Shown here: positions 13,180 through 51,800 of the stretch, one piece after another
How positions within the stretch are numbered: position 1 is the stretch's first letter
Layout: each line of letters begins with the position of its first letter
Assembly (NCBI GenBank): GCA_951406725.2
Contig: OX597814.1
Location: 149,978,001-150,042,000, forward strand
Direction: 5' to 3'
DNA from: Octopus vulgaris
Lineage: Eukaryota
DNA: 64,000 bases
Made by a program: the position numbers and the translations under genes
The notes under the pieces: generated by a model
Databases searched by the model: none
What the model was told of the DNA's origin: nothing
What the model saw: the letters and a program-made list of their open reading frames with translations, nothing else

Positions 13180-23094
<9,915 letters not shown>

Positions 23095-23848
23095 TAAATG
23101 AAAATCAGAATGTGATTAGTTGAACGTTTATTATCACCCAGCTCTGTAATTTAACAAATAGAAGTGTTTAGATTCACACATACGTCATCATCATCGTTTA
23201 ACGTCCGCTTTCCATGCTAGCATGGGTTGGACGATTTTGACTGAGGGTTGGCGAACCAGATGGCTGCACCAAGCTCCAATCTTGATCTGGCAGAGTTTCT
23301 ACAGCTAGATGCCCTTCTTAATGCCAACCACTCCGAGAGTGTAGTGGGTGCCTTTTACGTGCCACCGGCACGGAAGCCAGTATCTATTTATAAGTAAATA
23401 TAAGAAACACATGTTTTACTTCATTTCACAGCCACTAAAATTTTCAGTGTAAAAATTCAGTGAGTTAACTTGGTATGAAGAAGAGAAAGACAAGTCTTTA
23501 TTTCTTCAAAGAAAATGTGTGTGTGTGTGTATACATATATATACACACACACACACTCACTCACATGCAGTCAGGTCAGTCACAAGTGCTACTGGCAACA
23601 GTCTGGTACAACCTACTTATTGCATGATCAGGTTGTCAACAAAGAAAGACCGGTCTGGTGAGGAGAATTGCAAGAAATTCAATAGCTGGAAAGCAATATC
23701 TATTAAAAAAAAGAAACTGATGTACCCAGTGCAGGGTAATATGACCATCAATAACACAGTTACTTCAAACTTCCAGTTTGGAATCTGCCATGGCGAAAGA
23801 ACACCAAGAGTCGAGCAGCCCTTGGCTTTCATTAAAGAAAGCTTTTAA

Positions 23849-24054
23849 CCCTTTAGCATGTAAACCAACCACATCTGGACCAAATAGTCAACCACTTTTA
23901 TGCTCAGACTGGCCAGATATTCCCTCTCACACATACCCAACATTGTTTTTCTAAACATAAACAGTCACATCATTGAAATCTGAAAGCTGAGTAATTCAAA
24001 CTAAAATGAATATATAAGGATTATAGTTAACAGAATAATCTGAATGCTAAAGGG
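23849..24054. mobile_element. piggyBac-type MITE (relatives at 40123-40337, ~22330-22550, ~43190-43630, ~50475-50670)
   Basis: TTAA target duplication, CCCTTTAGCA...TGCTAAAGGG termini. Confidence 0.8.
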
Positions 24055-24367
24055 TTAAGAAGGCACCACTGTTTTACCAGCTACACTAGCAGTATAACTG
24101 GGCAAGAAGGTGATCTGGGCTCAGTAGCCTTGGAAGGCAGCCAGACTAGAAGATCAACTCTTGAACATAAGCATTCTCTGCTTGTGTCTGCAAAGAGGAG
24201 TCAATACAGACAGTAAATCAGGAGAACTTTGCACCTCCATCAACACCACCAGACCCTATCCACCCCAAAGACAGTTTGAAAGTGGGCAAGAAATGGATTT
24301 TCAGCCATGATAAGGAGAACATCTACCTACTTATATATCCACACACACATTTTCTGAAATCACAAAA

Positions 24368-24496
24368 ACATGTCACAAAATTTATGCCTTCACTGTTACA
24401 AAGAAACAATGAAGGAAAGTGATAGTGTATTTATGTAGCAACAAACAATTATTCCAGAGAGAAAAACTCAAGAAATATACATAAAAATTGTTGCAA
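24368..24496 (-). ncRNA. Unassigned H/ACA snoRNA, copy B
   Basis: 3' half nearly identical to copy A; H box ACAUAA differs only at an N position; identity stops just after ACA. Confidence 0.68.
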
Positions 24497-26672
24497 TAAG
24501 TGGATGGAGGGTAAAAAATTACTAGCTGAATACATTAAGACCTGCTTAGATTCACATATAAACACAATATACAAGACCCATCTTTTCACATCACATTCAC
24601 TAAAATTTTCAAACTAAACAAATATACATAACAAAATTTGCCTCTTTCTGCTGTAGTCCACGCTCAATTAAACAGGTGAAGTGTACCATAACTTCACAAG
24701 TGCTGGTACCACAAAAAGAAAAGAAGCCATTATTCTACAAAGTGACTGGTTTATGAAATAGAGTAGAAGTTATGCCAAAAGACATGGGGGGGGGGGCATG
24801 ATGCAGTCCCTCCTGCCTGATGCCATCAAACCATGCCAGGTTGCTTACAAGTACTACTGTTACATGAAAGTCAATGACTATCAGTAGCACAAGAACATAG
24901 ATCTTTTCAATTGGGATCCAACAGGCTGTGTAAGATCACTGAAGTGAAGCAACCCATATCACTTGTCAAAGAAGGTCTCTAAAAGGAGACACTACTTTGT
25001 ACAACCGAACTGATATAGCTGTTAGTTTAACTGGGCTTGGCAGCCCAGAAAGACAAAATTGAGCTTCAGAAATGCAACCACACATGGATTGTTGGTGATT
25101 TTTCCTTCTTCTTTGGACTTTCCTCTTTCCAACAAAGAGCTATGCTTGAAATGTTAACAACTCTCTCCTTTTACTAAGTGTCAAATTAATATACTGCTCC
25201 TGCACATCCTCACATTTGCTTTTCTTTTGCTTTTTAATTACTCATTCATTGAATTGACTAAGAGAAGGCCAACTAGTACAAGCCCTCACTGCCTGTTAGT
25301 GCCTGTCAAGAGATAGAAAAGTAAGGGAGCCAATCCCTTAGGGTAAATTGAGTCAGAAGAGAAATACCCACACCAACCTTGCTCTGACTCCATCTTCAGG
25401 CTCTATTCATGCCAAAGAGAACTGGAAGAGTCAATGAATGGGTTGTGCCAGAGTACCCTAACCCTGCGCCATGACAATGGGAATATTCATTTACTTTTTA
25501 AAAGGCAAGTAAAAGGAGTTAGTACCAGGATGCGCATTCAGCTGTAAGCTACCTAAAACTATCCCGTTTAACCAGTGCCAGCATGAAGATGAAAATGTTG
25601 ACTTTGTGACTTATAGAAGTGGCAATACAAGCAAAGGAAGGGGCAGGAGATCCCTTAACTGCAACTCAGGTCTACTCAACACAAATCAGTACTTTGCATT
25701 GTACAAGACCCAATCACTTTACTGAAATGCAGGATAATTAGTATGCATCAGCATATCTAAATGAATACAATTAACACAAGAAAACCAACAGAAAAATTTT
25801 GAAGTGAAGGCACATTATTCACATCACAAACTTATGAGGAAAAGGTTGAATGCCACAGGTTGTTTCATTTATTCCTACTATAAATCAACTATGGGAAATG
25901 GTTGAGATCAAAGTGAACCTTTCTGAAACATCTAGCTCAATAATAAAGAAATTAAGTTCTTTCTAAACACAGTTAATAAAATACCATTATTATAGAAACC
26001 ATGTTATTTGTGTCGGAGCTTTGTTCTGTTTGCAAAATGAGTACACTAAGGGAAGTCCTTATAAAAGGAAGACGCAAACACAAGCCTGTTTTTGGAGGGA
26101 GCAGGGGACATTAACAAGTAAATGACATAGGCAGGTCACAGACATTGTTACAAGTTACTATATACTATGCAACAAAAAAACATCACTCATTTCATTCCAA
26201 GAAATTAGTGTTACCACAGATTGGACACAAAAGAAGAACCAGTGCAACAGGCCTAAGGGAGGCCCATCACCAGAGATCGAAGAGAATTCAGATACACGTG
26301 GCTCTATTAGCTTTCTAAACATCACCGTCAGTAAATAAAGCAATTAACATAGACGATTCATGCCATTTATTTGTTCAAGTATCTTTTTCCGTTCATAAAA
26401 GAATGCTTAGGGTAAAAAAACAGCAGCAAAAGTAAAGAATACGTACAACCTGATGGGTTTTTGTTACGCCGAAAACGGGTGGTGTATGTATTCTTTACCT
26501 CAACCGAAACAGCTTCCAACTGATAACAAAGCCCCTGCGGTTTAAGAGAAAGGGGTGAAGCGATCACTCGCCTTTAGTTTTCCAAGAACATTAGTACCAT
26601 GTCAAAATAAGGGACATCAACCTCTCAGGGGTTACCACCTACTACAATACAAAACGCACGATGATCGACAAA

Positions 26673-26807
26673 TATTGTCACAACAAAACGAGTAAGTTTT
26701 TTTTTTAACATAGCAACACAATATATTCCAAACGTTCTGTTGTATTTAATGTTTCCCATGCGTACAACTATTCTATTATAGAAACAAAATAGCAAATAAA
26801 TGGGAGG
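26673..26807 (-). ncRNA. SNORA20: H/ACA snoRNA SNORA20-like, copy 1
   Basis: UCCCAU/AUGGGA stem, pocket UUAUUU / UGUACGC, H box ACAUUA, 12-bp 3' stem, ACA+3. Confidence 0.8.
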
Positions 26808-26863
26808 GAAAGCATCAACTGAAGATGCTAATCCTCAAATAAAAGAGATTCATTGTCTCTTAC

Positions 26864-26921
26864 CAGATTAATCACCTTCAATCATCTTTCCAGACCACAA
26901 CTAATACTACCAGTCCTCAAA
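26864..26921 (-). other. Predicted 58-nt non-coding cassette exon (further copies at 28872-28929, 30861-30918, 32868-32925)
   Basis: Branch point CTAAC (26946-26942), acceptor gatttcAG, donor CTG|GTAAG about 55 nt upstream of SNORA20. Confidence 0.55.
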
Positions 26922-27879
26922 CTGAAATCATAATTCAATATGTTAGACACGGTTTTAAAACCATACTGCCATTAGGCTGCAAAAATACATGTATTTATAA
27001 GCTTAAGATTGCAGAACTGAAGTGAGGACATCTTTCAAGGTAGTAGAACAGTACAGATCAATGGTTCTCAACTAGGATCCAGATAAGATTTTGCTGTCAA
27101 AATTTACGGGCAATAAATTGGTTATATTTCTACAATATACAAATTAAACATTTTTTATAGAACTCCTATCGGAACCAAAGGGGTCCACAGGCAAAAAATA
27201 GTTGAGAAACACTGATATAGATAAAGATCTAGCAATGCATAACTTTTATGAAGTCCTGAGAGTTGATCAATACATCTCAGTAATTTAGTACAGCTCGTTT
27301 TTGAGCGTGGCCGTTGCCAGTACCGCCTGACTGGCCCTCTCTCGAGGTTGTTGGTGTTAGGAAGGGCATCCAACTGTAGAAACTCTGCCAGATCAAATTG
27401 GAGTCTGGTGTAGCCATCTGGTTCGCTAGACCTCAGTCAAATCGTCCAACCCATGCTAGCATGGAAAGCGGATGTTAAACGATGAGGTTTTTCAGCTGTA
27501 ACAAGGAATACTATTCCAAGGAAACATGATCCTTTATTTTGAATATTGCCTACCTAATATAATGAAAATGGAAGTTTATAATTGTTAAATATATTCGAAT
27601 TATTACTCAACAACTTCCCGTTAGTTTGCTTCAGATTCTCACCATAGGAAAATACTAGATCCATTCTTAATTGGCAATAAAATTAAGGCAATATTTTAAA
27701 AACAGCTAGATCCAACATTTTTAAGATAAGGGGAAACTGGAGTTTTTCCAAATTTTACTTCTAAAGAGGAACCTTTGGGCCACCTTTGACTTTGAACGAA
27801 TCCCTTCGTTTTTTATGACCTTGCTGTTCCCAAGGTCAACTCCCTTTACCCCCAAAACATTTTTATCCTACATAAAAAA

Positions 27880-28275
27880 CCCAATGCCATAAACGTAGAA
27901 GATATACAACGAAGGGCCCAGCACTTAAGAGAACTTTTAAATAAAACAACTAAGCTTTACATGTCCCTGCCTACAGAAGACCAAAAGGGAAATATTAAAG
28001 GCTTTGAAGATCATAAGCGGAATCTACGACAAAGTTATTTGAAAATATAAGGGAACACGATAAGAAACATGACAGCAACAAGTGAGAATGAACGTAAGGA
28101 AACACTACGAGAGAGTAGTGAATATTTAGAAGAGAGCCCTTCCATAAGGTGATGCAATCTGAAAAGATTTATCCACACCTGGAATAATATAGAAACAACG
28201 AAGACGATAATACATAATCGCTGTGACCACTACCAAAAAAAGAACTAGTGAAACAGGCCTAAGGGAGGCCCATCA
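27880..28275 (+). mobile_element. Degenerate CR1-clade LINE 3' end, repeated in each array unit (also ~29900, ~31880, ~33890)
   Basis: VEDIQRRA...KIISGIYDKV and downstream RVVNI-like remnant resemble the CR1 ORF2 C-terminus; GGCCT-n5-AGGCC tail hairpin. Confidence 0.6.
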
Positions 28276-28681
28276 CAAGAGATCAAAGAGAATTCAGATA
28301 CACATGGCTCTAATAAAGAATAAAGTTTCTTTTCTTTCTAAACATCACCGTCAGTAAATAAAGCAATTAGAATAGACGATGCATGCCATTTATTTGTTCA
28401 CGTATCTTTTTCAGTTCATAAAAGAATGCTTAGGGTAAAAAAAAAACAGCGGCAAAAGAATACGTACAACCTGATGTGTTTTTGTTACGCCAAAAATGGG
28501 TGGTGTATGTATTCTTTACCTCAACCGAAACGGCTTCCAACTGATAACAAAGCCCCTGCAGTTCCAGAGAAAGGGGCAAAACAATCACTCGCCTTTACTT
28601 TTCCAAGAACATTAGTACCATGTCAAAAAACGGGACATCAACCTCTCAGGGGTTACCACCTACTACACAATGATCAACAAA

Positions 28682-28815
28682 AATTGTCACAACAAAACGA
28701 GTAAGTTTTTTTTTAACATAGCAACACAATATATTCCAAACGTTCTGTTGTATTTAATGTTTCCCATGCGTATAACTATTCTATTATAGAAATAAAATAG
28801 CAAACAAATGGGAAG
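28682..28815 (-). ncRNA. SNORA20: H/ACA snoRNA SNORA20-like, copy 2
   Basis: CUUCCCAUUUGUUUGCU...AGUUAUACGCAUGGGA, H box ACAUUA, ACAAUU end. Confidence 0.82.
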
Positions 28816-30670
28816 GAAAGCATCAACAGAAGATGCTAAACCTCAAATAAAAGAGATCCATTGTCTCTTACCAGATTAATCACCTTCAATCATCTTTCCA
28901 GACCACAACTAATACTGCCAGTCCTCAAACTGAAATCTTAATTCAATATGTTAGACATGGTTTTAAAACCATACTGCCATTAGGCTGCAAAAATACATGT
29001 ATTTATAAGCTTAAGACTGCAGAACTGAAGTGAGGACATCTTTCAAGTTAGTAGAACAGTACAGATCAATGGTTCTCAACTAGGATCCAGATAAGATTTT
29101 GCTGTCAAATTTTACAGGCAATAAATTGGTTATATTTCTACAATATACAAATTTAACATTTTTTATAGAACTCCTATAGGAACCAAAGGGGTCCACGGGA
29201 AAATAGTTGAAAAACACTGATATAAAGATCTAGCAATGCGTAACTTTTATGAAGTCCTGAGAGTTGATCAATACATCTCAGTAATTTAGTACAGCTCGTT
29301 TTTGAGCGTGGCCGTTGCCAGTACCGCCTGACTGGCCCTCTCTCGGGGTTGTTGGCGTTAGGAAGGGCATCCAACTGTAGAAACTCTGCCAGATCAAATT
29401 GGAGTCTGGTGTAGCCATCTGGTTCGCCAGACCTCAGTCAAATCATCCAACCCACGCTAGCATGGAAAGCGAACGTTAAACGATGATGATGTTTTTCGGC
29501 TGTAACAAGGAATCCTATTCCAAGGAAACATGATCCTTTATTTTGAATATTGCCTACCTAATGTAATGAAAATGGAAGTTTATAATTGTTAAATATACTC
29601 GAATTATTACTCAACAACTTCCCGTTAGTTTGCTTCAGATTCTCACCATAGGAAAATACTAGATCCATTCTTAATTGGCAATAAAATTAAGGCAATATTT
29701 TAAAAACAGCTAGATCCAACATTTTTAAGATAAGGGGAAATTGGAGTTTTTCCAAATTTTACTTCTAAAGAGGAACCTTTGGGCCACCTTCGACTTTGAA
29801 CGAATCCCTTCGTTTTTTATGACCTTGCTGTTCCCAAGGTCAACTCCCTTTACCCCCAAAACATTTTTATCCTACATAAAAAACCCTATGCCATAAACGT
29901 AGAAGATATACAACGAAGGGCCCAGCACTTAAGAGAACTTTTAAATAAAACAACTTTAAGCTTTACATGTCCCTGCCTACAGAAGACCAAGAGGGAAATA
30001 TTAAAGGTTTTGAAGATCATAAGCGGAATCTACGACAAAGTTATTTGAAAATATAAGGGAACACAATAAGAAACATGACAGCAACAAGTGAGAATGAACG
30101 AGAGAGTAGTGACTATTTAGAAGAAAGCCCTTCTATAAGATGATGCAATCTGAAAAGATTTATCCACACCAGGAATAATATAGAAACAACGAAGACGAAA
30201 ATACGTAATCGCCGTGACCACTACCAAAAGAAGAACTAGTGAAACAGGCCTAAGGGAGGCCCATCACAAGAGATCAAAGAGAATTCAGATACACATGGCT
30301 CTAATAAAGAATAAAGTTTCTTTTCTTTCTAAACATCACCGTCAGTAAATAAAGCAATTAGAATAGACGATGCATGCCATTTATTTGTTCACGTATCTTT
30401 TTCAGTTCATAAAAGAATGCTTAGGGTAAAAAAAAACAGCGGCAAAAGAATACGTACAACCTGATGTGTTTTTGTTACGCCAAAAATGGGTGGTGTATGT
30501 ATTCTTTACCTCAACCGAAACGGCTTCCAACTGATAACAAAGCCCCTGCAGTTCCAGAGAAAGGGGCAAAACAATCACTCGCCTTTACTTTTCCAAGAAC
30601 ATTAGTACCATGTCAAAAAACGGGACATCAACCTCTCAGGGTTACCACCTACTACACAATGATCAACAAA

Positions 30671-30804
30671 AATTGTCACAACAAAACGAGTAAGTTTTTT
30701 TTTAACATAGCAACACAATATATTCCAAACGTTCTGTTGTATTTAATGTTTCCCATGCGTATAACTATTCTATTATAGAAATAAAATAGCAAACAAATGG
30801 GAAG
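30671..30804 (-). ncRNA. SNORA20: H/ACA snoRNA SNORA20-like, copy 3
   Basis: Same sequence and fold as copy 2. Confidence 0.82.
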
Positions 30805-32676
30805 GAAAGCATCAACAGAAGATGCTAAACCTCAAATAAAAGAGATCCATTGTCTCTTACCAGATTAATCACCTTCAATCATCTTTCCAGACCACAACTA
30901 ATACTGCCAGTCCTCAAACTGAAATCTTAATTCAATATGTTAGACATGGTTTTAAAACCATACTGCCATTAGGCTGCAAAAATACATGTATTTATAAGCT
31001 TAAGACTGCAGAACTGAAGTGAGGACATCTTTCAAGTTAGTAGAACAGTACAGATCAATGGTTCTCAACTAGGATCCAGATAAGATTTTGCTGTCAAATT
31101 TTACAGGCAATAAATTGGTTATATTTCTACAATATACAAATTTAACATTTTTTATAGAACTCCTATAGGAACCAAAGGGGTCCACGGGAAAATAGTTGAA
31201 AAACACTGATATAAAGATCTAGCAATGCGTAACTTTTATGAAGTCCTGAGAGTTGATCAATACATCTCAGTAATTTAGTACAGCTCGTTTTTGAGCGTGG
31301 CCGTTGCCAGTACCGCCTGACTGGCCCTCTCTCGGGGTTGTTGGCGTTAGGAAGGGCATCCAACTGTAGAAACTCTGCCAGATCAAATTGGAGTCTGGTG
31401 TAGCCATCTGGTTCGCTAGACCTCAGTCAAATCATCCAACCCACGCTAGCATGGAAAGCGAACGTTAAACGATGATGATGTTTTTCGGCTGTAACAAGGA
31501 ATCCTATTCCAAGGACACATGATCCTTTATTTTGAATATTGCCTACCTAATGTAATGAAAATGGAAGTTTATAATTGTTAAATATACTCGAATTATTACT
31601 CAACAACTTCCCGTTAGTTTGCTTCAGATTCTCACCATAGGAAAATACTAGATCCATTCTTAATTGGCAATAAAATTAAGGCAATATTTTAAAAACAGCT
31701 AGATCCAACATTTTTAAGATAAGGGGAAATTGGAGTTTTTCCAAATTTTACTTCTAAAGAGGAACCTTTGGGCCACCTTCGACTTTGAACGAATCCCTTC
31801 GTTTTTATGACCTTGCTGTTCCCAAGGTCAACTCCCTTTACCCCCAAAACATTTTTATCCTACATAAAAAACCCTATGCCATAAACGTAGAAGATATACA
31901 ACGAAGGGCCCAGCACTTAAGAGAACTTTTAAATAAAACAACTTTAAGCTTTACATGTCCCTGCCTACAGAAGACCAAGAGGGAAATATTAAAGGTTTTG
32001 AAGATCATAAGCGGAATCTACGACAAAGTTATTTGAAAATATAAGGGAACACAATAAGAAACATGACAGCAACAAGTGAGAATGAACGAGAGAGTAGTGA
32101 CTATTTAGAAGAAAGCCCTTCTATAAGATGATGCAATCTGAAAAGATTTATCCACACCAGGAATAATATAGAAACAACGAAGACGAAAATACGTAATCGC
32201 CGTGACCACTACCAAAAGAAGAACTAGTGCAACAGGCCTAAGGGAGGCCCATCACCAGGGATCGAAGAGAATTCAGATACACATGGCTCTAATAAAGAAT
32301 AAAGTTTCTTTGCTTTTTAAACATCACTGTCAGTAAATAAAGCAATTAACAGACGGTTCATGCCATTTATTTGCTCACGTATCTTTTTCCGTTCATAAAA
32401 AAATGCCTAGGGTAAAAAAAAAACAGCGGCAAAAGTAAAGAATACGTACAACCTGATGGGTTTTTGTTACGCCGAAAACGGGTGGTGTATGTATTCTTTA
32501 CTTCAACCGAAACGGCTTCCAACTGATAACAAAGCCCCTGCAGTTCAAGAGAAAGGGGCGAAACAATCAGTCGCCTTTACTTTTCCAAGAACATTAGTAC
32601 CATGTCAAAAAACGAGACATCGACCTCTCAAGGGTTACCACCTACGACAATACAAAACGGACGATGATCATAAAAA

Positions 32677-32811
32677 AATTGTCACAACAAAACGAGTAAG
32701 TTTTTTTTTTAACATAGCAACACAATATATTCCAAACGTTCTGTTGTATTTAATGTTTCCCATGCGTATAACTATTTTATTATAGAAATAAAATAGCAAA
32801 TAAATGGGAAG
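32677..32811 (-). ncRNA. SNORA20: H/ACA snoRNA SNORA20-like, copy 4
   Basis: CUUCCCAUUUAUUUGCU...AGUUAUACGCAUGGGA matches the recalled human SNORA20 5' hairpin ends; H and ACA boxes present. Confidence 0.85.
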
Positions 32812-34682
32812 GAAAGCATCAACAGAAGATGCTAAACCTCAAATAAAAGAGATTCATTGTCTCTTACCAGATTAATCACCTTCAATCATCTTTCCAGACC
32901 ACAACTAATACTGCCAGTCCTCAAACTGAAATCTTAATTCAATATGTTAGACATGGTTTTAAAACCATACTGCCATTAGGCTGCAAAAATACATGTATTT
33001 ATAAACTTAAGATTGCAGAACTGAAGTGAGGACATCTTTCAAGTTAGTAGAACAGTACAGATCAATGGTTCTCAACTAGGATCCAGATAAGATTTTGCTG
33101 TCAAAATTTATGGGCAATAAATTGGTTATATTTCTACAATATACAAATTAAAAATTTTTTATAGAACTCCTATAGGAACCAAAGGGGTCCACAGGCAAAA
33201 AATAGTTGAGAAACACTGATATAGATAAAGATCTAGTAATGCATAACTTTTATGAAGTCCTGAGAGTTGATCAATACATCTCAGTAATTTAGTACAGCTC
33301 GTTTTTGAGCGTGGCCGTTGCCAGTACAGCCTGACTGGCCCTCTCTCGGGGTTGTTGGCGTTAGGAAGGGCATCCAACTGTAGAAACTCTGCCAGATCAA
33401 ATTGGAGTCTGGTGTAGCCATCTGGTTCGCCAGACCTCAGTCAAATCGTCCAACCCACGCTAGCATGGAAAGCGAACGTTAAACGATGATGATGTTTTTC
33501 AGCTGTAACAAGGAATACTATTCCAAGGAAACATGATCCTTTATTTTGAATATTGCCTACCTAATGTAATGAAAATGGAAGTTTATAATTGTTAAATATA
33601 CTCGAATTATTACTCAACAACTTCCCGTTAGTTTGCTTCAGATTCTCACCATAGGAAAATACTAGATCCATTCTTAATTGGCAATAAAAATAAGGCAATA
33701 TTTTAAAAACAGCTAGATCCAACATTTTTAAGATAAGGGGAAATTGGAGTTTTTCCAAATTTTACTTCTAAAGAGGAACCTTTGAGCCACCTTCGACTTC
33801 GGACGAATCCCTTCGGTTTTTATGACCTTGCTGTTCCCAAGGTCAACTCCCTTTACCCCCAAAACATTTTTATCCTACATAAAAGACCCAATGCCATAAA
33901 CGTAGAAGATATACAACGAAGGGCCCAGCACTTAAGAGAACTTTTAAATAAAACAACTTTAAGCTTTACATGTCCATGCCTACAGAAGACCAAAAGGGAA
34001 ATATTAAAGGTTTTGAAGATCATAAGCGGAATCTACGACAAAGTTATTTGAAAATATAAGGGAACACGATAAGAAACAGGACAGCAACAAGTGCAAATGA
34101 ACGTAAGGAAACACTACGAGAGAGTAGTGAATATTTAGAAGAGAGCCCTTCCATAAGATGATGCAATCTGAAAAGATTTATCCACACCAGAAACAACGAA
34201 GACGAAAATACATAATCGCCGTGACCACTACCAAAAGAAGAACTAGTGCAACAGGCCTAAAGGAGGCCCATCACCAGAGATCGAAGAGAATTCAGATACA
34301 CATGGCTCTAATAAAGAATAAAGTTTCTTTTCTTTCTAAACATCACTGTCAGTAAATAAAGCAATTAACATAGACGGTTCATGCCATTTATTTGCTCACG
34401 TATCTTTTTCCGTTCATAAAAAAATGCCTAGAGTAAAAAAACAGCGGCAAAAGTAAAGAATACGTACAACCTGATGGGTTTTTGTTACGCCGAAAACGGG
34501 TGGTGTATGTATTCTTTACCTCAACTGAAACGGCTTCCAACTGATAACAAAGCCCCTGCAGTTCAAGAGAAAGGGGCGAAACAATCAGTCGCCTTTACTT
34601 TTCCAAGAACATTAGTACCATGTCAAAAAAACGGGACATCGACCTCTCAGGGGTTACCACCTACTACACGATGATCAACAAA

Positions 34683-34812
34683 AATTGTCACAACAAAACG
34701 AATAAGTTTTTAACATAGCAACACAATATATTCCAAACGTTCTGTTGTATTTAATGTTTCCCATGCGTATAACTATTCTATTAAAAAAATAAAATAGCAA
34801 ATAAATGGGAGT
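34683..34812 (-). ncRNA. SNORA20: H/ACA snoRNA SNORA20-like, copy 5 (its 5' end coincides with the array edge)
   Basis: Hairpin-H-hairpin-ACA; pocket strand UAUACGC is complementary to 18S GCGUAUA and lies 14 nt from the H box. Confidence 0.85.
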
Positions 34813-36323
34813 AAACGAGGTAGCAATAATGTCAAATTGAGAAAAAATTTTTAACGATTCAAAAGAAAAAAAAAAATCAGGCAACAATTCGCAAATCAGA
34901 CCGTTAAAGCCGACTAGAATGTTCGTTCTAGTTATTAACACCACTGATTTATATAAGATGTATGGTGTTGTCATTTCAAGGGCATTGTGAAAGGAGTCAA
35001 ATTCTGTAGAAAATACCTTAAATATAGAAACCTCCTTAAAATAAAACCTTCGAGGTTAAACGGAAAATGATCAAACGGATATGATGAACTTGAGTCGGGG
35101 GAAAATGAAAAGGAATGTATGACCTTTTTTTAAGGTCAAAGGTTCGTTTCATAGAGTGAAAAGGGAAAGCAGAAGTTCAATGTCCTTTAAATGTTTCAAT
35201 ATTAAGCCTCACAGACTTACAAATAAATTACAATCACGAGCACCAAATTAAAATCTGTAAATGGAAGAGGTGGTTAAGGGTTTCGAGACCGGAGTCTACG
35301 ACCAAGAGACGTTTTCGTTACTTTTAATTGATGTGCACACACACACACAAACAAATATATATTATATTATATATATATATACATATATAATGCACACAAT
35401 AATCTGAACAGAGAGCCTGCAGAACGTGATATTTGATGGTTCTCCGAGACCAATGAGAATAAAACGATTTATACATTCTGTCCAAAGCTAAGTGGACGGC
35501 TACAGGAAAATTGTGAAGGGAGGGATTCCTGGGTGGCGATTTGTGGGAAGGACAGGGCGTAACTTTATATCAGACATGATAACTGAATTACGCTGGATAT
35601 CACTAGAAAAGAAACAAAGAACCTATTTAAAACAAAATTTATTCACAATAATTACCAGCAACAGTTAGCCACCAAAAGATTTCACTTTGTAATGCATGAA
35701 CACGTGGATGTAAATAACCACGTGGGTTTATATAAGGAACATTACATTGTTCATTGAAGCTAAAATTCTAAAAATATTTAAATGTCTTTAGAGATTGCTG
35801 TTATAAATCAGCAGCTGACAATTATTTTCCTTTGAAAAAAAAAAATTTTTAATGAATGAAATTGGCGGAATACGTTATATTGATTAAGGCAATAAAAAAA
35901 AATCGGGATATATCAATTGCAGTAATGTATTACTATTTTTATTAATTATCAATTTTCATTTTCTGTAATATTTAAAACAAGAAAATCAAAAACTTTTCCA
36001 TCTCAATTATTATTATGAGATTGCATGTATCTATGTTGAAAGAAATGGGTTAAAGAGACCTCCCCTCTTTTCGTTAGCTTCAACACCGGCTTGCCGGCAT
36101 GGGCTGGAACAGGTGCACGATTAATTAACGCCAGGCGGGCTTCATTGAATTATGTTTGACATCCAATTGGTGTTCGTTATATTATAAGTAATAAGACAAA
36201 TTGAAAAATATTTAAAACTAACTCAAATGAGCGGCATTATAAAATAAATCATAGACTGAACAAAAACACTTAAGGAGGAGGGCACGTTTAAAGGATAAAG
36301 CAGCTCATGATATTTTAACTTAC

Positions 36324-36450
36324 CAAATTATTCAGCAGACTGCTGTCTGAGTCGTTTCTCACGGCGAATAACTGATTTTAAGGCCTACACCACTACGCTC
36401 CTCCACCGTTAATCAGCTGAACTATTGAATATCCGGTGACACGCAGAAAG
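36324..36450 (-). other. HSPD1: Probable non-coding first exon of HSP60 (upstream edge approximate)
   Basis: Strong donor TTG|GTAAGT at 36323 next to the HSE-containing, CpG-richer promoter. The ATG exon has an acceptor only 5 nt before the ATG, so an upstream exon is required. Confidence 0.65.
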
Positions 36451-36660
36451 TCTGCGGCCCGGGACTCGGCATATTAAAACGAAATAGCTTTATTATAAGA
36501 ATTATTTTCAACTCATTTGTGTACTTCAAAATGAATTTCTGCAAGAAATATCGATTAAATGAAACTTTTTGTATGCAAATTAAGCATATTGCGAAATCAT
36601 TTAAATTTAAGACTAAATCTTCTGTTTGGAAATTACATTATACAGGGTTAGGTTTTATGT

Positions 36661-36675
36661 TGAACTTTCTAGAAA
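36661..36675. promoter_or_regulatory. Heat-shock element 1 in the HSP60/HSP10 bidirectional promoter
   Basis: tGAActTTCtaGAAa, three perfect alternating nGAAn units. Confidence 0.85.
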
Positions 36676-36797
36676 TACTGCTCGACTTTTTGGAGTTCAA
36701 TATTTTAAACCACTTTTACGAAGTGTTACGTTTATTAAACAAAATTGTAAATCAAAATAATAACAGTAAGTCATTTTAAAGTTAATTACACTAAGCA

Positions 36798-36812
36798 TTT
36801 CTAGAAGCTTCT
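36798..36812. promoter_or_regulatory. Heat-shock element 2 in the bidirectional promoter
   Basis: tTTCtaGAAgcTTCt, three perfect alternating nGAAn units. Confidence 0.85.
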
Positions 36813-37000
36813 AAGAATGAATACGGATAATTTGGAGTTACCGACAGGTCATTGCGACTGCGCATTGATACATAAGCCGCGCATGGGAAAGGCCGGTCAT
36901 TGATCCTTCTAGTTATTTACTAGTAAATCACGTCCGAACATTCTTGTCGTCCTGAAGTTTTGTCTGCTTTAAACCAAACCTTGAATTTAGAAAAACAACA

Positions 37001-37003
37001 ATG
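37001..37003 (+). CDS. HSPE1: HSP10 exon 1 coding part (ATG only)
   Basis: aaacaacaATG|GTATGT; an ATG-only first exon is also the vertebrate HSPE1 layout. Confidence 0.85.
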
Positions 37004-47914: not shown

Positions 47915-48800
47915 ACTATGCATGAAGCCAGCTTGCTCTGATGGATGTGTAATGTCAGTGTGCATACTCGACAGAGTGTTAGTGCCTTGAGAGAGAGGTT
48001 GGACCAAAGAAGCATCAGATGTGGTGTGCAAGAGAGACGACTGCACTGGTATGGCCATGTGGCGAGGATGGATGTGGATAGCTGTGTGAAAAAGTGCCGC
48101 ACCCTAGCAGTTGACGGAACTTGTGGAAGCGGAAGACCTGGGATGAGGTGGTGAAGTATTACCTTCAAAATCTGGGCCTCACCGAGGCATTGACTAGTGA
48201 CCGGAATCTCTGGAAATATGCTGTGCTTGAGAAGACTCAGCAAGCACAAGTGAAACCATAATCTTGTGGCCTATGCCAGGGGTGTAACCATTCCACTTCC
48301 TTCAATGGACACTAAACTCTGCTTGCGAAGACTTGTTGAGGCTAGTGAAATCGAAATCAAATTCAATGACTGGCATCCACGCTAAGAGTACCATACGAGT
48401 GAGATCGGGGCCAGAGCAACAAGCTGGCCTCCGAGCCGATGGCACGTTAAAAGCACCAATCAAGCGTGATCGTTACCTTCATCGCCTTACTAGCACTTTA
48501 GCTGGTGGCACGTGAAAAAACATTTGAGCAAGGTCGTTGCCAGTGCCACTGGACTGGCTCCTGTGCAGGTGGCACATAAAAAGCACCATTTAAGTGTGGC
48601 CATTGCCAGTACCGCCTGACTGACCCTCATGCTGGTGGCATGTAGAAGTATCCACTACACTCTCGGAGTGGTTGGCGTTAGGAAGGGCATCCGGCTGTAG
48701 AAACTCTGCCAGATCAGATTGTAGTGTGGTGCAGCCATCTGGTTCGCCAGACCTCAGTCAAATCGTCGAACCCATGCTAGCATGGAAAGCGGACATTAAA
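47915..48800 (+). mobile_element. RTE-clade LINE 3' end with its 3' UTR/tail (more degenerate relative at ~41730-42090)
   Basis: ERRLHWYGHVARM...GRPGMRW peptide; tail CCATGCTAGCATGGAAAGCGGAC shared with many short copies. Confidence 0.8.
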
Positions 48801-51800
48801 TGATATGCATAATATTTATAAACACTAGGTTTTGGGGGGTTTTTCTACACTATAATTAAACCCCCTTTTCTTTAATAGTATTTCTGTGTCACAAAAAAAG
48901 ACTGGAAGTTTAATATTTACTAATTGCTTATTCCTGGAAATAATGCCCATTGATTCTTTGTAAGAATATTTTTCTGTGGGTGATATTACAGTGAATGGTT
49001 TGTGTATCTGTTGCAAAAGGTTTTACCATGTCCTACAATGATTTCATACAAATGTTTTTTGCTCAATGCTTCTCTGTTAACATCAGTTATTTAATTCTTC
49101 CTTGCGTAACCTCTACATACATCTGCAAACATTCTGTTTTGTCAAGAATAATTTTGTTCTTACCCGGCTGTTAGAGATGGATTTGGTTTTCATATCTGAC
49201 GAAGTGTAACAACAAAGAAAATATCGTACAATCCAATGGCGTCATTCACCACTGACAAACTTCTTTTTTTTTTTTTTTCAAGTATAAGTGAAGAAATTTC
49301 TCCCAAGACTATCTCTGCAGTGGAAAAGTGTTATAACATCCAAATATACTTAAACAAGCTAACATGGCTTTAATGGCCATTACATTGTTCAATTAGACAT
49401 TTCCAATTCAGTGAGTGTGGACTTAGCCCATCAAATGAAGGGTTGACAGCTCATGATATATGCAGTGTTGCTTTTAGAGATTTTGTCTTAAATGTAAATA
49501 GATATGATTTGCAGTGAACACCAGGAGCATTGTACAATGAATATACTATTAGTTGGCAACACTGAATACCAATTTTACCATGATAGGAAGGGAATTGATG
49601 TGAATGAGATGCTATTTAGGTTTCTCTCAGGACAAGGTACAAATGGGGTTTTTTTTTTTCTCTTTTTGAAGTTTGTAATGACGAGCAAGCCTCTTTATCT
49701 AGCTTTCATTGATTCAAAGAAGGCCTTTAAAAAAGATTCTGATCTGAAGGAAATTATACAGATGAATGACTTGTAAGACCTGTATTAGCCATGTGCATGA
49801 GTGCTGTTAGTAAGGACAGGCAAGCAAGAACGGTTCAAGGCTAGTTGTTCATGGGAATTCCTGAATGTTGACGGCCTAATTATTGTAACCAAACAAATGG
49901 AAAAGTTCTTGAGGTGGCAGATTTTAGAATCACTCTTAAAGTAAATATAGCAAAGACAAAATTTTAGTTGGCTCTAGAATTTTGTATTCTTATTTGATAT
50001 GTAATATGCAGAAATATAGCCATTCCTTATATTGTGCCCAATGTAAACTTCAAATGCATAAGAGATTCAGCAGATTACAGGCAACTGCACTTAAATCTCA
50101 TGGCTGTTTTATGACAGCTTGTTTGGTGTTAGGCAGGGCATTCAGCTGTAGAAACCATGCCAAATCAGATTGGAACCTGGTGTAGCCTTACAGCTTACCA
50201 GTTTTAATCAAACCTGTTTCTTTACTACCCACAAGGAGTTAAACACAGAGAGGACAGACAAACGGATTAAGTTGATTACATCGACCCCAGTGCGTAACTG
50301 GTACTTATTTAATCGACCCCGAAAGGATGAAAGGCAAAGTCGACCTCGGCGTAATATGAACTCAGTATGTAGCGGCAGACGAAATACCGCTAAGCATTTC
50401 GCCTGGTGTGCTAACGATTCTGCCAGCTCGCCAGCATGAAAAGCAGATGCTAAATGATTATATTGTAAATCTAACCCTTTAGCATTTAATTCCAACTTCA
50501 AATTTCTACCTGTTTTATTTTAAAACAACCACTCAAACCTGCCTATACCATTCTAAAAATAAACAAATGCACCATTGAAATCTTGAAGCTACAAGATAGT
50601 GCGTGATTAATCCAAGACAATGTGAATAAAAAAGCATTACATGTGACAAAGAAATCTAAATGCTTAAAGGGTTACAGTGATTATAAGCCATTTACATAAC
50701 CATTCAAATGGACCTTTAAGCAATCTATTGCTCAACAATAATATTTTGTTAGAAAATCAAGAATTTATGAGCTTTTTTTTTAAAATCCAATTTCATGCTT
50801 AAAAATGCTAACCAAAACATAATAAACAGTCACATAAGAATGAAGAAAAATGTTTATTTTGAATATTTCAGGTGTTTTATGACACAGTATTTACTCATGG
50901 TTGTTTTGCTGAAGCAATGTAAATAGCAGATTTCAGCACTCATTGGCGTGGAACATTCTGTAGCAACATCCACTGGTAATGTCTGCTGCAAACTGCTACT
51001 GACTTTCTACAAAGTGAGCTGATGAGTTTCACACTTGCTTCCAAGTTATAAATCATATCATAGACTGTGGCTTTGCTGGGGCACTGCCTTGAATTATTTT
51101 TAACTAATTGACTACAGTATTTATTTTTCTTTTAATTTATGGTACTTATTCTCTCAGTGTTTTTTGCCAAACTGTTAAGTTACAGGGATGCAAACCAACA
51201 TTGGCTGTCAAGTGGCAGTGGATATTGTAGAAGATACTTGGCTAAGGTGCCACACAGTAGGATTGAACCTGGAACTATGTGGTTTAGAAGCAAACTTCTA
51301 ACCATGCTTGCACCTCTAACTTTCTGGTACTTAATTTATCGGCCCCAAAAGGATGAAAGGCAAAGCTGACCTCAGCGGAATTTGAACTCAGAACGTAAAG
51401 ACAGACGAAATACTGCTTAGCATTTTGCCCGGCGTGCCAACATTTCTGCTATTTCCCCACCTTAGTACTATAATAATATTGCTGTTATTAATAGTCTTGT
51501 ATTTCTGTCTGTCATATAGGTACATGTGTTTATGCATTATGTATATAAGATATAAGGCAACAAGCTGGCAGAGTCGTTAGCACACCGGGCAAAATGCTTG
51601 GTATTTCGGCTGCTGAGGTTGACTTTGCCTTTCATCCTTTCGGGGATGATTAAATAAGTACCAGTTATGCACTGGGGTCCATGTAATCAACTTACTCCTT
51701 CCCTGCAAATTTCAGGTCGTGTACCTTTAAGAGAATGGATTACGTATATAAGACGTATGATGGTTTCAAATTTTGTTGCAAGGCAAGGAAGGCTGTGGAA

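Follow-up and report, generated by a model that had tools for sequence, protein, structure and literature searches.

A tandem array of snoRNA candidates within intron 1 of an Octopus vulgaris HSP60 gene, with a repeated candidate exon that may separate snoRNA copies in a minor isoform

Does an invertebrate need a separate intron for each of its intronic small nucleolar RNAs (snoRNAs), or does it process several of them as a cluster from one intron? The question is raised by a stretch of 64,000 nucleotides (nt) of Octopus vulgaris DNA (assembly GCA_951406725.2, contig OX597814.1, positions 149,978,001 to 150,042,000), called the window below, in which the first intron of the gene for the mitochondrial chaperone HSP60 holds a tandem array of H/ACA snoRNA candidates resembling SNORA20. 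A sequence-only reading of the window had proposed that each unit of the array carries a 58-nt cassette exon and that every snoRNA copy thereby has an intron of its own. The explanation which we favour, tentatively and with a little under even confidence, is a different one. The main messenger RNA (mRNA) skips all of the array, and a minor isoform with a 266-nt exon would free snoRNAs in separate introns and would then likely be destroyed.

The coding part of the host gene comprises 11 exons on the minus strand (22858 to 13180) with a frame of 577 amino acids. Matches to Pfam Cpn60_TCP1 in the two later exons scanned (79.7 bits, and 33.1 bits, slightly below the cut-off) agree with its earlier identification as HSP60. 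The first intron spans 13.5 kb between the end of exon 1 at 36324 and the start of the ATG exon at 22858, and both of these edges, already named from the sequence, are borne out by the sequence together with the RNA contigs.

36324 to 36415, minus strand: HSP60 non-coding exon 1, its 5′ end taken from a contig of run X9, donor TTG/GTAAGT
22686 to 22858, minus strand: HSP60 ATG exon, ATG at 22853, first of the 11 coding exons, from RNA contigs and sequence

The RNA evidence consists of assembled contigs of four (X1, X5, X9 and X15) out of 24 listed runs, aligned to 21300-28225 only, a region which holds the ATG exon and one array unit (copy 4) and leaves exon 1, a predicted 34-nt exon and copies 1-3 outside. 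Such contigs lose rare forms, and the RNA joints examined are the 15 listed out of 78, a further 1002 loose ends and 22,832 pieces likewise lying beyond the listing. In X9, whose main contig (depth 804.5) spans HSP60 exons 2 and 3, record 24 continues for 91 letters past 22859, and all 30 readable letters match the window from 36325, that is, exon 1. In the main mRNA, therefore, exon 1 is joined to the ATG exon with nothing in between, and the array is skipped. Contigs of X1 and X5 likewise reach 22859, consistent with the direct junction.

The evidence for exon inclusion was obtained in X15, which is RNA, as its record 9 joins 22685 to 21721. Record 14 of this run is 326 nt long and has a depth of 8.91 against 732.8 for the main contig (~1%). 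Its letters 31-296 align gap-free to 26864-27129, with 30 unaligned letters on each side, and its edges fall on a GT at 26863, which is the predicted donor, and on an AG at 27130-27131, 208 nt upstream of the acceptor proposed for the 58-nt exon. Unaligned letters on both sides combined with AG and GT edges are what a 266-nt exon spliced at both ends would leave. In X15, record 13 carries unspliced sequence beyond the repeated donor and matches the window there, so the overhang of record 14 at that edge is not genomic. Two arbitrary ends would land on AG and GT with a frequency of 0.004. We hold it to be quite probable that the spliced 266-nt exon is present in X15. Record 14 has 8 mismatches to copy 4, to which the other copies show 6-7 differences, so that it may stem from any copy. 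The four candidate exons are as follows, copies being numbered in the direction of transcription.

32868 to 33133, minus strand: 266-nt exon candidate, copy 1, with the best acceptor (10.5), holding 32868-32925; from paralogy to the stretch under record 14
30861 to 31126, minus strand: 266-nt exon candidate, copy 2, holding 30861-30918; from sequence
28872 to 29137, minus strand: 266-nt exon candidate, copy 3, with the same sequence as copy 2, holding 28872-28929; from sequence
26864 to 27129, minus strand: 266-nt exon, copy 4 (tattgtag/AAA ... CTG/GTAAGA), holding 26864-26921; from X15 record 14; six upstream open reading frames

Which splicing pattern could leave such a contig was addressed by a k=31 graph simulation of seven isoform sets. 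Two of the seven reproduced everything: a length of 326 nt, overhangs of 30/30, an aligned stretch of 27129 to 26864, and 22858 as the first position of the main contig. In both, an upstream exon is spliced to the 266-nt exon and this to the ATG exon, alongside the skipping form, and in both the upstream exon ends in a letter other than G. A simulated 58-nt exon gave either a 115-nt contig or a record 14 broken at 26922. The simulation calls for an upstream partner with such an end, for which the sequence offers one candidate.

35221 to 35254, minus strand: predicted 34-nt non-coding exon (ttacag ... TTT/GTAAGT), 408 nt ahead of the first snoRNA; from sequence; candidate upstream partner of the 266-nt exon

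With the 34-nt exon the simulation reproduces record 14 exactly. The region has just two GTAAGT sites, the donor of this exon and that of exon 1. The upstream partner would accordingly end in a non-G letter, and the 34-nt exon fits this as well as a variant end of exon 1 in the organism of X15 would. A separate observation is that the main contig of X15 starts exactly at 22858, for which the 34-nt exon would account, implying a 5′ untranslated region (5′ UTR) that differs between the organisms of the runs. In X15 the bin of the ATG exon shows a surplus of 483 depth × nt, where 267 would be expected from the overhang of record 14; the surplus is essentially none in X1 (8), X5 (−11) and X9 (3).

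The acceptor at 27129 lies inside an element resembling a miniature inverted-repeat transposable element (MITE), present once per unit and with a putative resemblance to hAT/Charlie elements.

27059 to 27214: MITE-like element of 156 nt, holding the acceptor at 27129; 16-nt terminal inverted repeats matching at 14/16, flanking 8-mers at 6/8

Two models of splice sites were employed. Model 1 uses matrices from the 14 acceptors and 14 donors of the window, with leave-one-out ranges for the real sites, and model 2, a pooled-tract acceptor model, was constructed after the RNA contigs had been seen. In the pooled-tract model the 266-nt acceptor scores 10.5, 6.2, 6.2 and 7.9 in copies 1-4, within the real range of 5.8-17.8. 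The 266-nt exon contains six upstream open reading frames (uORFs) in each of the two copies scanned (1 and 4), the 58-nt version would contain one, of 5 codons, and exon 1 has no upstream ATG. Ten coding-exon junctions lie downstream of the uORFs, which places premature stops ahead of exon junctions. Under the rules of nonsense-mediated decay (NMD), a stop ahead of downstream exon junctions leads to decay of the message. Because of the six uORFs and ten downstream junctions, inclusion of the 266-nt exon would likely lead to decay.

What the exon would separate is a series of snoRNA candidates, and every head-to-tail unit of the array holds one.

26228 to 34810: tandem array of about 4.3 units of 1989-2008 nt, head to tail

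Between units 31-71 differences were counted per about 1980 positions. An artefact of assembly is an unlikely source of the array, because contigs of the runs show the numbers of mismatches and gaps that belong to different copies. X15 records 13 and 15 fit two different copies (mismatches/gaps 24/1 found against 25/1 expected, and 8/17 matched exactly), and X5 record 23 fits another exactly (22/20). An X1 contig with alleles of the upstream copies (26505-26560) has a depth of 39.5, whereas the unique flank has 11.3-11.6, which hints weakly that the X1 sample has more than one copy.

A scan with Rfam gave no match at gathering level. At a lowered threshold five SNORA20 matches of 38.4-46.4 bits were obtained, which cover the 5′ hairpin only and stay under the gathering cut-off of 60. 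Folding of four of the five copies gave a hairpin-H-hairpin-ACA structure with z from −3.0 to −4.1, and the expected order of hairpin, ANANNA, hairpin and ACA is present, the distance between 5′ pocket and H box being 14 nt. A second H/ACA-type candidate lies twice between the array and the ATG exon.

34683 to 34812, minus strand: SNORA20-like H/ACA snoRNA, copy 0; Rfam 42.8 bits, fold z −3.9
32677 to 32811, minus strand: SNORA20-like, copy 1, 3′ end placed by alignment; 46.4 bits, z −4.1
30671 to 30804, minus strand: SNORA20-like, copy 2, 3′ end placed likewise; 43.1 bits, z −4.0
28682 to 28815, minus strand: SNORA20-like, copy 3, 3′ end placed likewise; 43.1 bits, left out of the folding
26673 to 26807, minus strand: SNORA20-like, copy 4, both pocket strands altered; 38.4 bits, z −3.0
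24368 to 24496, minus strand: second H/ACA-type candidate, copy a, weak SNORA1 match; 30.1 bits, E 0.2, z −3.8
22966 to 23094, minus strand: second H/ACA-type candidate, copy b, 90% identical to copy a; from Rfam at low threshold and folding

With exon 1 spliced directly to the ATG exon, a single intron holds all of the copies, five of them SNORA20-like and two SNORA1-like. The idea of an own intron per snoRNA copy is therefore false for the main mRNA, since the X9 form skips all candidate exons, and is plausible for a minor isoform. The SNORA1-like pair (24368-24496 and 22966-23094) appears to be an older duplication with intact H and ACA boxes, and a GTAAGC donor stands at 24849 ahead of its first member. 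A further snoRNA per unit, suggested by a hairpin pair at 26514-26369 (z −2.7), was rejected as the ACA is lost in copy 0. The bin at 26369-26514 has depths of 33-538 in all four runs, with neighbouring bins near zero in X5 and X9, which suggests a genome-wide repeat. Rfam matches to mir-297, mir-2483 and SCARNA7 were far under the cut-off and were discarded. No match was found for the SNORA20 pattern in metagenome contigs, for the snoRNAs, exons and intron by blastn in 80 HSP60-related loci, or for Rfam in the 15 of these 80 loci that were scanned.

With these elements the favoured explanation, the minor isoform with a 266-nt exon, can be set out in steps. Most transcripts would have exon 1 followed at once by the ATG exon and would yield HSP60. 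A minority would include a unit exon, which would split the intron and place snoRNAs at lariat ends where they could be trimmed. The shorter lariats would be debranched and trimmed to mature snoRNAs, and the exon-including product would be degraded by NMD, so that its steady-state level would understate inclusion. The arrangement may have originated from two snoRNAs, one spacer having expanded by unequal crossing-over. Skipping and, if record 14 is spliced on both sides, as is likely, exon inclusion are each seen in contigs, of different runs; release, decay and regulation are inferred. Separation of all snoRNA copies requires copy-to-copy splicing. As a simple two-copy simulation fails to give record 14 and a copy-to-copy joint does not appear among those listed, transcripts with a single unit exon would leave part of the copies unseparated. 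Of the proposed amplification of an exon-plus-snoRNA module it stands that the unit probably carries both and that the donor looks used in one of the four runs; an exon length of 58 nt is not supported.

Several results weigh against this explanation. Model 1 gives the 266-nt acceptor no edge, its scores in copies 1-4 being 5.2, 1.8, 1.8 and 4.7 versus 1.8, 1.8, 1.8 and 6.0 for the 58-nt acceptor, and the model which favours it postdates sight of the reads. The 266-nt edges occur in one contig of one of the four runs; the contigs listed for X1, X5 and X9 include none with 58-nt or 266-nt edges, which we do not count against inclusion, since contigs drop rare forms, and X1 record 7 is unspliced through both acceptors and the repeated donor. 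No copy-to-copy junction is found among the 15 of 78 joints listed, which cover one unit, and the two-copy simulation mentioned above does not yield record 14. The exon 1 end of the window simulates a contig of 324 nt with overhangs of 29/28, which mismatches record 14, so that an extra assumption on the upstream partner is required. Lastly, the exon shows no extra constraint among copies, 9 of 266 exon columns varying against 39 of 1024 linker columns, a comparison low in power because the copies are too young.

These points bring in the strongest competitor, which we consider unlikely but a real contender: splicing noise, in which duplication of the unit also multiplied an acceptor from a transposon and a donor present by chance, both used at ~1% without purpose, the snoRNAs being cut as a cluster from the 13.5-kb intron or the extra copies being mostly passengers. 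It agrees with the position of the acceptor in the MITE-like element, with the skipping of the whole array by the main X9 mRNA and with the lack of excess conservation of the exon. Comparable site pairs are also common, as in model 1 an equally good pair was found in 692 of 1000 resampled 2-kb units and 7 times in 12,825 nt of other HSP60 intron sequence. Intronic H/ACA clusters exist in Drosophila, whereas the same source describes one snoRNA per intron in silkworm and vertebrates (PMC3089462). Each gap has one GTAAG donor, so that six of the seven candidates are preceded by such a site, which would be odd for noise, but these are three independent events and occur at about the chance rate. 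Should the exon be noise, a tandem amplification of a snoRNA would still stand, and the finding would otherwise be ordinary.

Next comes the sequence-only reading itself, that is, a 58-nt exon in every unit, copy-to-copy splicing, an own intron per snoRNA and a 58-nt ladder in reverse transcription PCR; we regard this version as improbable. Much of its description of the sequence is accurate. The 58-nt stretches at 32868-32925, 30861-30918, 28872-28929 and 26864-26921 (minus strand) are present, each framed by tttcag and CTG/GTAAGA, so that the motifs stand in 4/4 copies with just one of 58 columns varying. CTAAC stands upstream of the acceptor with its branch A at −22, the extra AG reported for three of four copies is found in copies 1-3 and is absent from copy 4, and the donor said to precede SNORA20 by about 55 nt was measured 56 nt ahead of every SNORA20-like 5′ end that follows it. 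What it says of every snoRNA does not hold, there being five snoRNA copies and four exon copies, and the first snoRNA (34812) has no such exon ahead.

The four copies of the motifs are duplicates and hence one observation. The repeated donor CTG/GTAAGA is ordinary to good in model 1, with 7.7 compared to 4.9-12.3 for real donors left out one at a time. The 58-nt acceptor has the same score, 1.8, in copies 1-3 and a higher one, 6.0, in copy 4, compared to 2.8-15.8 for real ones. In the pooled-tract model it reaches 1.8-3.6, which is under all 14 real acceptors, and of 353 YAG sites in the background 100 do at least as well. A CTAAC at −15 to −45 is rare, with 4 of the 353 background sites, yet 0 of 11 real HSP60 acceptors carry one. 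In view of the 692 of 1000 units and the 100 of 353 sites, the 58-nt site pair is not stronger than the intron background, and the sequence alone does not demonstrate a 58-nt exon, its motifs lying within chance. Use of the 58-nt acceptor was seen in none of the RNA contigs listed, X15 record 14 and X1 record 7 both running unbroken through 26921, and if a 58-nt form coexisted, record 14 should be interrupted at 26922. As contigs drop rare variants, a hidden minor form is possible, but the exon contig seen has 266 nt, with the same donor and the acceptor at 27129. The proposed length is thus probably wrong, a 58-nt ladder is not expected, and the main X9 mRNA skips the array in any case.

Comparably improbable is a long snoRNA-ended RNA of about 11.8 kb (34812 to 22966), similar to SLERT and shielded by the outermost H/ACA particles, as the main intron product, the rare exon shifting the balance to single snoRNAs; it is compatible with the minor-isoform explanation. 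With the direct junction a single lariat contains all seven H/ACA candidates, and SLERT arises when the exon that parts two snoRNA introns is skipped (PMC11028025, PMC4234469). In X1 the contigs have depths of 8-20 over most of 24030-28094 versus 5.9 for a contig in intron 2, but contig depth is no basis for ranking the parts of one gene and may reflect nascent RNA or DNA, and the contigs show no RNA ends. The likeness to SLERT and other snoRNA-ended long non-coding RNAs (lncRNAs) lies in exon skipping that leaves several H/ACA snoRNAs in one intron; the difference is that two snoRNAs are involved there against seven candidates at HSP60, where the long RNA is hypothetical, and the known cases are mammalian. 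Recursive splicing at an AG/GT in each unit (33560, 31546, 29557 and 27553, minus strand) is very improbable: the site occurs in 4/4 linkers, scores 7.4-11.7 as an acceptor in model 1, and would reconcile the direct junction with one-snoRNA lariats and no exon left in the mRNA, but that score relies on the exon-side GT, intron-only scores being 4.0-5.7 (acceptor) and 4.4 (donor), both under the real ranges, and the RNA contigs listed give it no read support.

How does the HSP60 locus compare with known systems? One snoRNA per intron, the premise of the sequence-only reading, is the predominant rule, and new tandem arrays are expected in understudied genomes, as excerpts of PMC11028025 have it; the rule is not strict, as that source and the Drosophila clusters of PMC3089462 indicate. 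Several H/ACA copies within one intron of the main transcript recall those clusters, which contrast with the one-per-intron layout of silkworm; the HSP60 units differ in that each includes a candidate separator exon. The SNORD115/116 arrays (SNHG14) and rat Bsr/RBII-36 consist of tandem units of a repeated non-coding exon and a snoRNA intron, in the available portions of PMC3413130 and PMC11028025, and the HSP60 array resembles them in its tandem units, each with a snoRNA candidate and probably an exon. The known arrays hold orphan snoRNAs of the C/D class, in as many as hundreds of copies, and their hosts are imprinted lncRNAs, while at HSP60 five H/ACA copies resembling a ribosomal RNA (rRNA) guide lie in a 5′ UTR intron of a protein gene whose main mRNA skips the exons. 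Because the host encodes a protein and the snoRNA is of H/ACA type, the locus is not a member of the SNORD115/116 class.

The closest parallel in processing is provided by human hosts of several snoRNAs such as C17orf76-AS1, which use alternative splicing and NMD, the skipping isoform making up about 70% of steady-state RNA (PMC4233243, in part). There, experiments showed that the skipping form dominates, that inclusion forms release single snoRNAs and that NMD hides them; the same is inferred at HSP60, where the exon differs in being tandemly amplified and in having its acceptor in a MITE-like element. Human SNORA20 (ACA20, RF00401) is hosted by TCP1 and targets U651 of 18S rRNA, according to a partial text of PMC3766210. 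The HSP60 copies align well with it in the 5′ hairpin and pocket, have both the H box and the ACA box, and again lie in a chaperonin host; they differ in reaching 38-46 bits against a cut-off of 60 and in a 3′ hairpin that does not align and contains a variable A run.

Repeated exon-plus-snoRNA arrays are thus already known, and an H/ACA version in a protein gene is a modest variant; literature searches, mainly of open texts without supplements, found no paper on this HSP60 locus. The known arrays of this kind are of C/D type, mammalian and in non-coding hosts. If the minor-isoform explanation is true, a young H/ACA array in the 5′ UTR of an essential protein-coding gene, with a separator acceptor that appears to be transposon-derived, would show the one-per-intron layout being rebuilt after duplication with the protein message undamaged. 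A more ambitious version, which we rate as a long shot, is that a transposon-derived decay exon and an rRNA-guide H/ACA snoRNA were co-amplified in the 5′ UTR of a heat-inducible HSP60, skipping giving mRNA plus the 11.8-kb H/ACA-ended RNA and inclusion giving snoRNAs plus a destroyed messenger. Were it true, an invertebrate would have ribosome modification coupled to the stress response of its mitochondrial chaperones.

A few features of the region remain to be recorded. Candidate exons at 25302 and 24187 have no support among the RNA contigs listed. A break at 24832 in X1 and X15 was rejected as a splice, as it reads as a 34-nt indel between CATG repeats; the 34 nt at 24798-24831, present in the window, are apparently missing from the X1 contig and probably from X15, likely an indel polymorphism. 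The bin at 26844-27074 has a slight residual depth in X5 and X9, which could be a short exon or the end of the MITE-like element. Each unit also holds an element resembling a short interspersed element (27339-27485 and its paralogues), with relatives at 23186-23339, at 48660-48804 and elsewhere. On the plus strand HSP10 lies head to head with HSP60, with ~600 nt between them (window 36324-37003), and its exon 1 has the ATG at its end. Inverted nGAAn repeats near 36800 and 36670 are present, which we take to resemble heat-shock elements.

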